Of a DNA stretch of 1,551 nt, positions 932-1,126 are shown one piece after another. Position numbers and translations under genes: made by a program. The first letter of the stretch is position 1; every line of letters starts with the position of its first letter. Source of the stretch: Escherichia coli (GTDB lineage Bacteria; Pseudomonadota; Gammaproteobacteria; Enterobacterales; Enterobacteriaceae); the NCBI RefSeq assembly GCF_003334335.1, contig NZ_QOWQ01000102.1; one strand, 5' to 3'. A model generated the notes under the pieces. That model did not search any database and was not told the DNA's origin. It was given only the letters and a program-made list of their open reading frames with translations.

Positions 932-1126
932 GTGGTCTTCCTATTGATGAAAAAACAAGCAATTACTTGGCATATTATCTGTAACACTTTAAAACTGTTA
1001 AGAAGATCACAATTCATTATGTTTATTATTGTCTGGCCGGAGGGATATTTGTTAAAAAGTGCGCCGTGTGGTGAATCCCCCTGTGCGGTGGGGCGACTGG
1101 TGTACATAGCATTTATTATGTTATGA
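932..1126 (+). CDS. Hypothetical small protein (64 aa), unrecognised; likely spurious
   Basis: ORF from the supplied track with a GTG start at 932 and TGA stop at 1124-1126, about 90 nt upstream of the strong plus-strand terminator. It lies in an AT-rich tract and overlaps ORFs 649-984 (+) and 781-1107 (-). No convincing ribosome-binding site and no recognisable motif. Confidence 0.1.
   Translation: MVFLLMKKQAITWHIICNTLKLLRRSQFIMFIIVWPEGYLLKSAPCGESPCAVGRLVYIAFIML

Follow-up and report, generated by a model that had tools for sequence, protein, structure and literature searches.

An AT-rich tract in a decayed E. coli prophage remnant is probably the spacer and upstream module of an STnc100-family small RNA gene

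The window, by which we mean the whole 1,551-nucleotide (nt) stretch of DNA analysed here, is accessory E. coli DNA, a patchwork of phage scraps lying between insertion sequence (IS) elements. Its left edge (1–77) is the end of an IS3-family element and serves as context only; positions 1–69 correspond to an IS3-family transposase pseudogene in one matching locus (L002), and homology to the window begins at 78 in most genomes. At the right edge, the end of an IS150-family element occupies 1475–1551 on the minus strand, with its transposase coding sequence running from ~1501; from the sequence, we take the terminal TGTACTG at 1475 to be the IS150 terminus. The closest matches to the window are 99.6% identical over 78–1551, sit beside a decayed iro (salmochelin) cluster, and are themselves bounded by IS3-family and IS150-family elements. 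A core spanning 298–1315 recurs in O104:H4 within another island setting, beside IS21, IS200 and hypT. The allele is present in roughly 7% of E. coli genomes, O104:H4 strains included.

Flanked by pieces of IS3, IS200 and IS150, the window appears to hold a decayed remnant of a lambdoid late-region "moron" segment within an E. coli genomic island. The remnant runs from a tRNA pseudogene through a tciA'-'tciB fusion to an STnc100-family small RNA (sRNA) gene. This is the order found in the moron slot of phage Evi and of PPyecE_EH1910, where tRNA-tciA-tciB-STnc100 lies between the antiterminator gene Q and the lysis (holin/endolysin) genes; in the annotation of the loci matching the window, the remnant contains neither Q nor lysis genes. 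Upstream, a plus-strand pseudogene at 176–432 is a scrap of a P2-like phage replication gene, with 78% identity to a gene of Klebsiella phage 4LV2017 and its relatives; RefSeq carries it as a frameshifted partial hypothetical protein. To judge from these similarities, the window combines fragments of P2-like and of lambdoid phages, which are unrelated. The segment at 451–542 shows ~70% identity to DNA just upstream of the tRNA genes of an Stx2a phage (L005, 1185–1277), and may be what is left of the PR'/tR' region. The tRNA pseudogene follows at 550–617 on the plus strand: it retains a CAU anticodon loop, and its match to the Rfam tRNA model (30.7 bits) has a gap of 5 nt within the anticodon stem; ARAGORN reports no tRNA in the window. 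In phage Evi the corresponding DNA (3717–3790, 88% identical to 552–620) contains an intact tRNA that scores 72.5 bits (3715–3787).

The fusion pseudogene, at 649–984 on the plus strand, joins a TerB-like N-terminus to a DUF3927 core, as identified by PHROG, Pfam and BLAST comparison. It forms an open reading frame (ORF) of 111 amino acids in which the first ~35 residues derive from TciA and are followed by the middle of TciB. Profile matches cover residues 44–77 (phrog_632, tellurite resistance), 70–89 (phrog_1470, TciB-like) and 72–89 (Pfam DUF3927). BLAST pairs 643–861 with 4001–4220 of phage Evi, at the start of tciA, and 871–915 with 4613–4657, in tciB, so that ~390 bp have been deleted between tciA' and 'tciB relative to that phage. 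RefSeq annotation of the fusion is inconsistent among genomes, naming it a partial DUF3927 gene, an intact 58-aa DUF3927 protein or a "tellurite resistance protein". A preliminary description of the locus had suggested that DNA of this kind is often horizontally acquired or decayed, and both attributes are borne out by the lambdoid late-region remnant, the IS pieces, the adjoining iro island and the frameshifted pseudogene.

Downstream lies the sRNA gene itself, a plus-strand member of the STnc100 family (RF02076) at 1036–1250. The cmscan match is full length (model positions 1–206) and scores 138.5 bits against a gathering score of 47 (E = 4.7e-32). The core common to all STnc100 classes begins at 1069 with UGGUGAAUCCCCC, and 1069–1189 is 93% identical to phage Evi by BLAST. 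An intrinsic terminator at 1217–1250 is made up of an 11-bp stem closed by a 3-nt loop (1217–1241) and a run of T, and it coincides with the terminator helix in Rfam's model. By these structural models the copy is predicted to be intact, terminator included. Immediately beyond it, the truncated left end of an IS200 element, with the STnc490/art200 region, occupies 1257–1315 on the plus strand. The Rfam STnc490 match scores 62.4 bits at 1257–1343 with an internal gap, and homology to the complete IS200 of O104:H4 (L006) ends at 1315, where the element is cut in the window. STnc490 is the IS200 antisense RNA art200 (PMC4513863). In intact prophages a convergent AgvB/AsxR-type sRNA lies 3' of STnc100; it is absent here (1251–1343 compared with L004 4925–4986), and the IS200 end occupies its position. 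Locus L002 carries an IS4 insertion at 1263–1273, and 1316–1474, which separates the cut IS200 from the IS150 end, showed no homology in the comparisons carried out.

Members of the STnc100 sRNA family are borne on prophages in multiple copies, and the copy 3' of stx2B is EcOnc27, also called sRNA103 (PMC4104026, PMC12711010). Family members other than the one studied here are expressed from prophages in lysogens. EcOnc27 of Sakai Sp5 binds Hfq, as detected by CRAC crosslinking, and appears as species of ~235/247 nt on Northern blots (PMC4104026, PMC12711010); STnc100_4 of EDL933 was likewise confirmed by Northern blot (PMC5331693); and the LT2 copies carry RpoD and RpoN ChIP-exo signal (PMC10794520). 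Tree et al. (2014) located sRNA genes at this same moron position, 3' of PR' (PMC4104026), and a 2026 preprint relates STnc100 to PasD (10.64898/2026.05.13.724894). Motif text searches, the Pas papers and the LT2 ChIP-exo supplements yielded no transcription-start coordinates for STnc100, EcOnc27 or PasD. On single phage contigs, STnc100-type genes also occur in tandem arrays of 2–3 copies spaced ~230–480 nt apart (L051 at 1342/1588/1818, L063, L075, L080 and L081).

Between the remains of tciB and the sRNA core lies an AT-rich tract at 951–1060. An exact count gives 29.1% GC over these 110 nt, against 49.1% in the left flank (841–950), 56.4% in the right flank (1061–1170) and 47.1% in the whole window, in agreement with the earlier hand count of roughly 30%, clearly below the flanks. 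The GC profile that had been proposed as a check places 951–1060 as the joint lowest-GC 110-nt stretch in the window, and the best-scoring AT-rich segment, the core of the tract, is 942–1030 at 23.6% GC. When the window was shuffled 2000 times at the mononucleotide level, the lowest-GC 110-nt stretch averaged 35.7% (sd 2.2), and a value as low as that of the tract arose in only 0.8% of cases (p ~0.008). A GC content of 29.1% or less over 110 nt occurs at 0.7% of positions in ~60 kb of E. coli island DNA from the neighbourhood, and at 1.0% of positions in 1.1 Mb of related viral loci. The tract is thus real and non-random, a 1-in-100 feature and not an extreme one. The surrounding region had been called gene-poor, a view that does not survive the annotation: the tract abuts the STnc100-family gene, overlaps the Rfam match in its last 25 nt, and over its 3' two-thirds is that gene's conserved upstream module.

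The 5' third of the tract has a separate origin. Family matches in the fusion ORF stop at residue 89 (nt 915), and the tciB stop codon of the phage relatives aligns with the TGA at 948–950; 951–984 therefore reads as the out-of-frame, frameshifted tail of the tciB pseudogene. The tract as a whole would ancestrally have been the intergenic spacer between tciB and the sRNA gene. We weighed these data against the idea that the tract encodes protein, either a DUF3927 C-terminus (808–984) or a small hydrophobic protein from an ORF at 947–1126 that overlaps the sRNA. One genome does carry a RefSeq DUF3927 protein at 808–984, the frame at 932/947–1126 is open, and ribosome footprints have been recorded on some EDL933 STnc100 copies (PMC5331693). 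A genuine DUF3927 C-terminus was rejected since the Pfam and PHROG matches end before the tract and the tail (916–984) is out of frame with phage TciB. The small protein was rejected as well: ORF 947–1126 has no PHROG match, and among 125 family members the matching frame stays open for a median of only ~135 nt with no conserved start. We consider a coding role for the tract extremely improbable.

How STnc100-type genes are transcribed bears directly on the remaining two-thirds of the tract. We collected 120 viral loci with the invariant 5' motif TGGTGAATCCCCCNNNGCGG (L009–L128, also the source of the tandem arrays) and aligned their 102 unique upstream regions. In one group, class A, the best sigma-70 match has a −10 element ending 6–8 nt before UGGUG in 23 of 51 non-redundant upstream classes. 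This match typically takes the form TTGACn-N17/18-TAnnnT (spacing N16–18) and stands before the invariant UGGUGAAUCCCCC. Otherwise unrelated class A upstream sequences thus appear to converge on a promoter that would start the RNA at UGGUG. Because so many of the best matches end at this distance, STnc100-type genes are likely in general to have their own promoter immediately upstream. A start at UGGUG also fits the predicted structure, in which the closing stem begins at GCAUGGUG. The pattern suggests that the first ~30 positions of the Rfam STnc100 model may be promoter or leader in many members.

The sRNA gene of the window belongs to a second group, class B (27–31 unique sequences), in which the pairing of the closing stem GUGUGGUG/CACCAUGC is kept through changes on one side only, such as G-C to G-U. 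Alignment of 27 unique class B upstream regions defines a conserved module of ~75 nt with the form TTTTTAAAT-CTCACAATTCAG-nnn-GTTGACW-GTTGTCTGG-N12-TTTGTTAAAA. Its starting point is the same behind a tRNA and terminator as behind tciB, and in the Stx2a phage the same module is present from CACAATTCAG onward, directly after stx2B. A constant starting point behind different neighbours is what would be expected if the module and the sRNA gene move together. Its copy in the window covers ~996–1068 on the plus strand and is AT-enriched. The tract aligns at ~70% identity with 11 tciB-linked phage relatives, which share the module TTTTAAAT..CTCACAATTCAG..GTTGACW.GTTGTCTGG..TTTGTTAAAA; against phage Evi, BLAST found no match for the tract and left 916–1068 unaligned. 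Over positions −75 to +25 the window is 63–75% identical to its closest class B relatives (best 18). Its module retains the blocks CACAATTC, TTGTCTGG and TTTGTTAAAA, reads TTTATT in place of the TTGACW hexamer, and shows no variation at 996–1068 among the sampled E. coli alleles.

The module does not look like structured RNA. No conserved pairing is predicted upstream of −3 in class B, and the tract taken as RNA folds worse than its shuffles (z = +1.78). We rejected RNA structure in the tract on these two grounds, which together fit promoter DNA or an unstructured leader.

Position weight matrix (PWM) scanning suggests where a promoter could lie. In most class B relatives, TTGACW-N17-GAnTTT is the top or second PWM match, with scores of up to 10.6, and predicts a start ~10 nt before UGGUG. 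The homologous candidate in the window, P_B (1022–1049, plus strand), pairs TTTATT (1022–1027) with GATATT (1044–1049) across 16 nt and has a predicted start at ~1056. Relative to its homologues it has a degraded −35 (TTTATT versus TTGACT/A) and a better −10; its score is 5.2 on a rough PWM, read on the allele of S1-CAM-01-A (L007), which is identical over 1022–1049. A second candidate, P1 (967–996, plus strand), combines TTGGCA (967–972) with TAAAAC/AAAACT (990–996) at a spacing of 17/18 nt. It scores 8.3/8.0, is the third-best plus-strand PWM match in the window and has a predicted start at ~1002. Relatives read TTAGCA-N17/18-TGAAAT/TAAATT at the P1 position, and class B copies behind a tRNA lack any P1 equivalent. 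Neither P_B nor P1 passes a stricter consensus scan of the plus strand. The RpoN ChIP-exo signal at the LT2 copies prompted a search for a sigma-54 promoter (TGGCAC-N5-TTGCW), which we rejected at chance-level matches: the tract's single match with 3 mismatches (968–983) lacks the −12 GC, and the window holds 7 such matches where 8.2 are expected.

The minus strand offers better consensus matches, and a possible antisense reading with them. The consensus scan found TTAACA-16-GATAAT at 974–1001 (read 1001 to 974; 10/12 matches), which is probably spurious, and TTAACA-16-GACAAT at 1028–1055 (read 1055 to 1028; 9/12 matches), which is made of the conserved class B blocks TTTGTTAAAA and ATTGTC. 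The preliminary description could place no well-spaced −35/−10 pair here, which is only partly right: well-spaced pairs exist, these two with 16-nt spacing on the minus strand and weaker ones on the plus strand. It was right that such a tract can be promoter-rich, in that all 3 consensus promoter-like sites of the window fall in the tract and on the minus strand, though their total is within chance expectation (2.1 ± 1.4). As the best consensus matches in the window, these pairs could serve as an antisense or divergent promoter driving RNA into the tciB/tciA remnant. The sites are not conserved, however, and we rejected them as functional elements. The 974–1001 site is allele-specific, since the alleles of O104:H4 and S1-CAM-01-A carry a G at 974, giving a −10 of GATAAC, and the phage relatives read GATACC; the 1028–1055 site reads GACAAC in most relatives and so lacks the final T. 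Nothing intact lies downstream to regulate. An antisense promoter is very improbable, and we judge the minus-strand sites to be by-products of AT-richness.

Comparison with relatives also suggests why the tract is AT-rich. The homologous spacer has 38–42.5% GC in the 11 tciB-linked phage relatives, compared with 33% in the window (951–1068). Measured against the relatives' consensus, which is not a reconstructed ancestor, 951–1068 differs by 24 strong-to-weak and 12 weak-to-strong changes, although strong sites are the minority; we infer a GC-to-AT direction of change in the lineage of the window. The family's promoter and spacer DNA is already AT-rich, and an excess of GC-to-AT change under weak constraint could have carried this lineage further. 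Among the sampled E. coli alleles, 3 of 11 distinct SNP positions (961, 968 and 974) fall within the 110-nt tract, all in its pseudogene-tail part. In strain 98197 (L129) the IS3-family element ISSen4 lies inside the module, and hence the tract, with 1019–1024 duplicated; the module is evidently dispensable there. The SNPs and the insertion jointly suggest weak constraint on at least the 5' third.

Such observations raise the possibility that the tract is simply inert, a decayed spacer separating a defunct gene from a fossil copy of the sRNA, shaped by AT-ward mutation bias and having neither a transcription start nor a function. The 2:1 excess of GC-to-AT differences, the SNPs and the IS insertion all agree with this, as do the loss of the conserved −35 and the patchwork of pseudogenes and IS ends that runs through the window. 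The same DNA nevertheless leads into an sRNA that is structurally intact with its terminator, 996–1068 keeps its conserved blocks and is invariant among the sampled alleles, and the GATATT −10 is better than that of the relatives. An inert spacer is the less likely outcome, but one that we take seriously.

Silencing offers another account of the base composition. AT-rich DNA with many promoter-like matches is a typical substrate of H-NS, and the tract, at 29.1% GC, lies ~20 points below the surrounding host DNA (47–50%) in acquired sequence. It could on this account nucleate H-NS or a similar nucleoid protein and silence the island or the sRNA. Yet the tract is short (~90–110 nt) and set between flanks of 49–56% GC, and the high-affinity H-NS motif TCGATAAATT has no match anywhere in the window at up to 2 mismatches. 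A nucleoid-protein patch, a possibility raised in the preliminary description, is improbable on this evidence; it is compatible with a promoter in the tract and does not exclude one.

We favour the reading that the tract is the spacer together with the promoter/leader module of the STnc100-family sRNA gene, AT-enriched by drift, and consider it probable. It builds on the identity of the neighbouring genes, the homology of the module and the composition of the tract as described above. The first third of the tract (951–984) would be pseudogene tail and the last two-thirds (~996–1060) class B upstream module. The module most likely supplies the sRNA with a sigma-70 promoter of its own, AT-rich in its upstream portion, and it may add a short unstructured 5' leader. 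We infer that transcription starts within the tract in this copy, near 1056.

Several points weigh against this explanation. The conserved −35 has been lost and P_B scores only 5.2, so this copy may be weakly expressed or silent. Even the class B −10 (GAGTTT) is poor, and its conservation could reflect shared ancestry and not selection. The insertion in strain 98197 counts here too. EcOnc27, moreover, at ~235/247 nt exceeds the ~175–195 nt predicted from a start ~10 nt before UGGUG. Its length suggests a 5' end 55–70 nt upstream, near CACAATTC. Transcription would then run through part of the module as leader, from a promoter situated before it, such as P1. A P1 start at ~1002 would give an RNA of ~245 nt, close to the EcOnc27 species, but the P1 −35 is destroyed by the SNP at 968 in the S1-CAM-01-A allele.

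A bolder interpretation would treat the AT enrichment as a rewiring of the sRNA promoter. Loss of the consensus −35, gain of a better −10 (GATATT) and addition of AT-rich upstream DNA would, on this interpretation, place expression under H-NS or stress dependence; alternatively, the tract might start a dual-function RNA that encodes the 59-aa ORF at 947–1126. We regard either version as a long shot.

Set beside known systems, the probable promoter/leader module and its gene present nothing new in kind: the tract is the upstream region of an already known sRNA gene family. The window copy is a full-length member of STnc100, the family of EcOnc27 (Sakai Sp5) and sRNA103 (EDL933) to which PasD1/PasD2 of EPEC are related. 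It resembles other members in its local position 3' of late-region tRNAs and morons, in having its own terminator and in its class B module, which is found also 3' of stx2B in Stx2a phages. It differs in lying within a prophage scrap that lacks Q, the lysis genes and the convergent AgvB/AsxR-type sRNA, and in a module of higher AT content without the TTGACW hexamer. The gene order likewise matches the lambdoid moron region downstream of PR', with its tRNA genes, tciA/tciB or stx, and convergent sRNAs; here, however, the tRNA is a pseudogene, the ~390-bp deletion has fused tciA to tciB, IS3, IS200 and IS150 form the bounds, and the rest of the prophage is gone. With H-NS-silenced xenogeneic DNA the tract shares low GC in acquired sequence and a local excess of −35/−10-like matches, but it spans only ~100 nt and has no high-affinity H-NS motif.

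As a fossil in a decayed island, the window copy has little significance in itself. It does carry a lesson for annotation, in that an AT-rich tract taken for gene-poor DNA belongs to a known and widespread prophage sRNA gene whose regulation is poorly defined. The distinction between a class A promoter and a class B module of ~75 nt could help to establish where these sRNAs truly start, and how they are regulated, in pathogenic E. coli.
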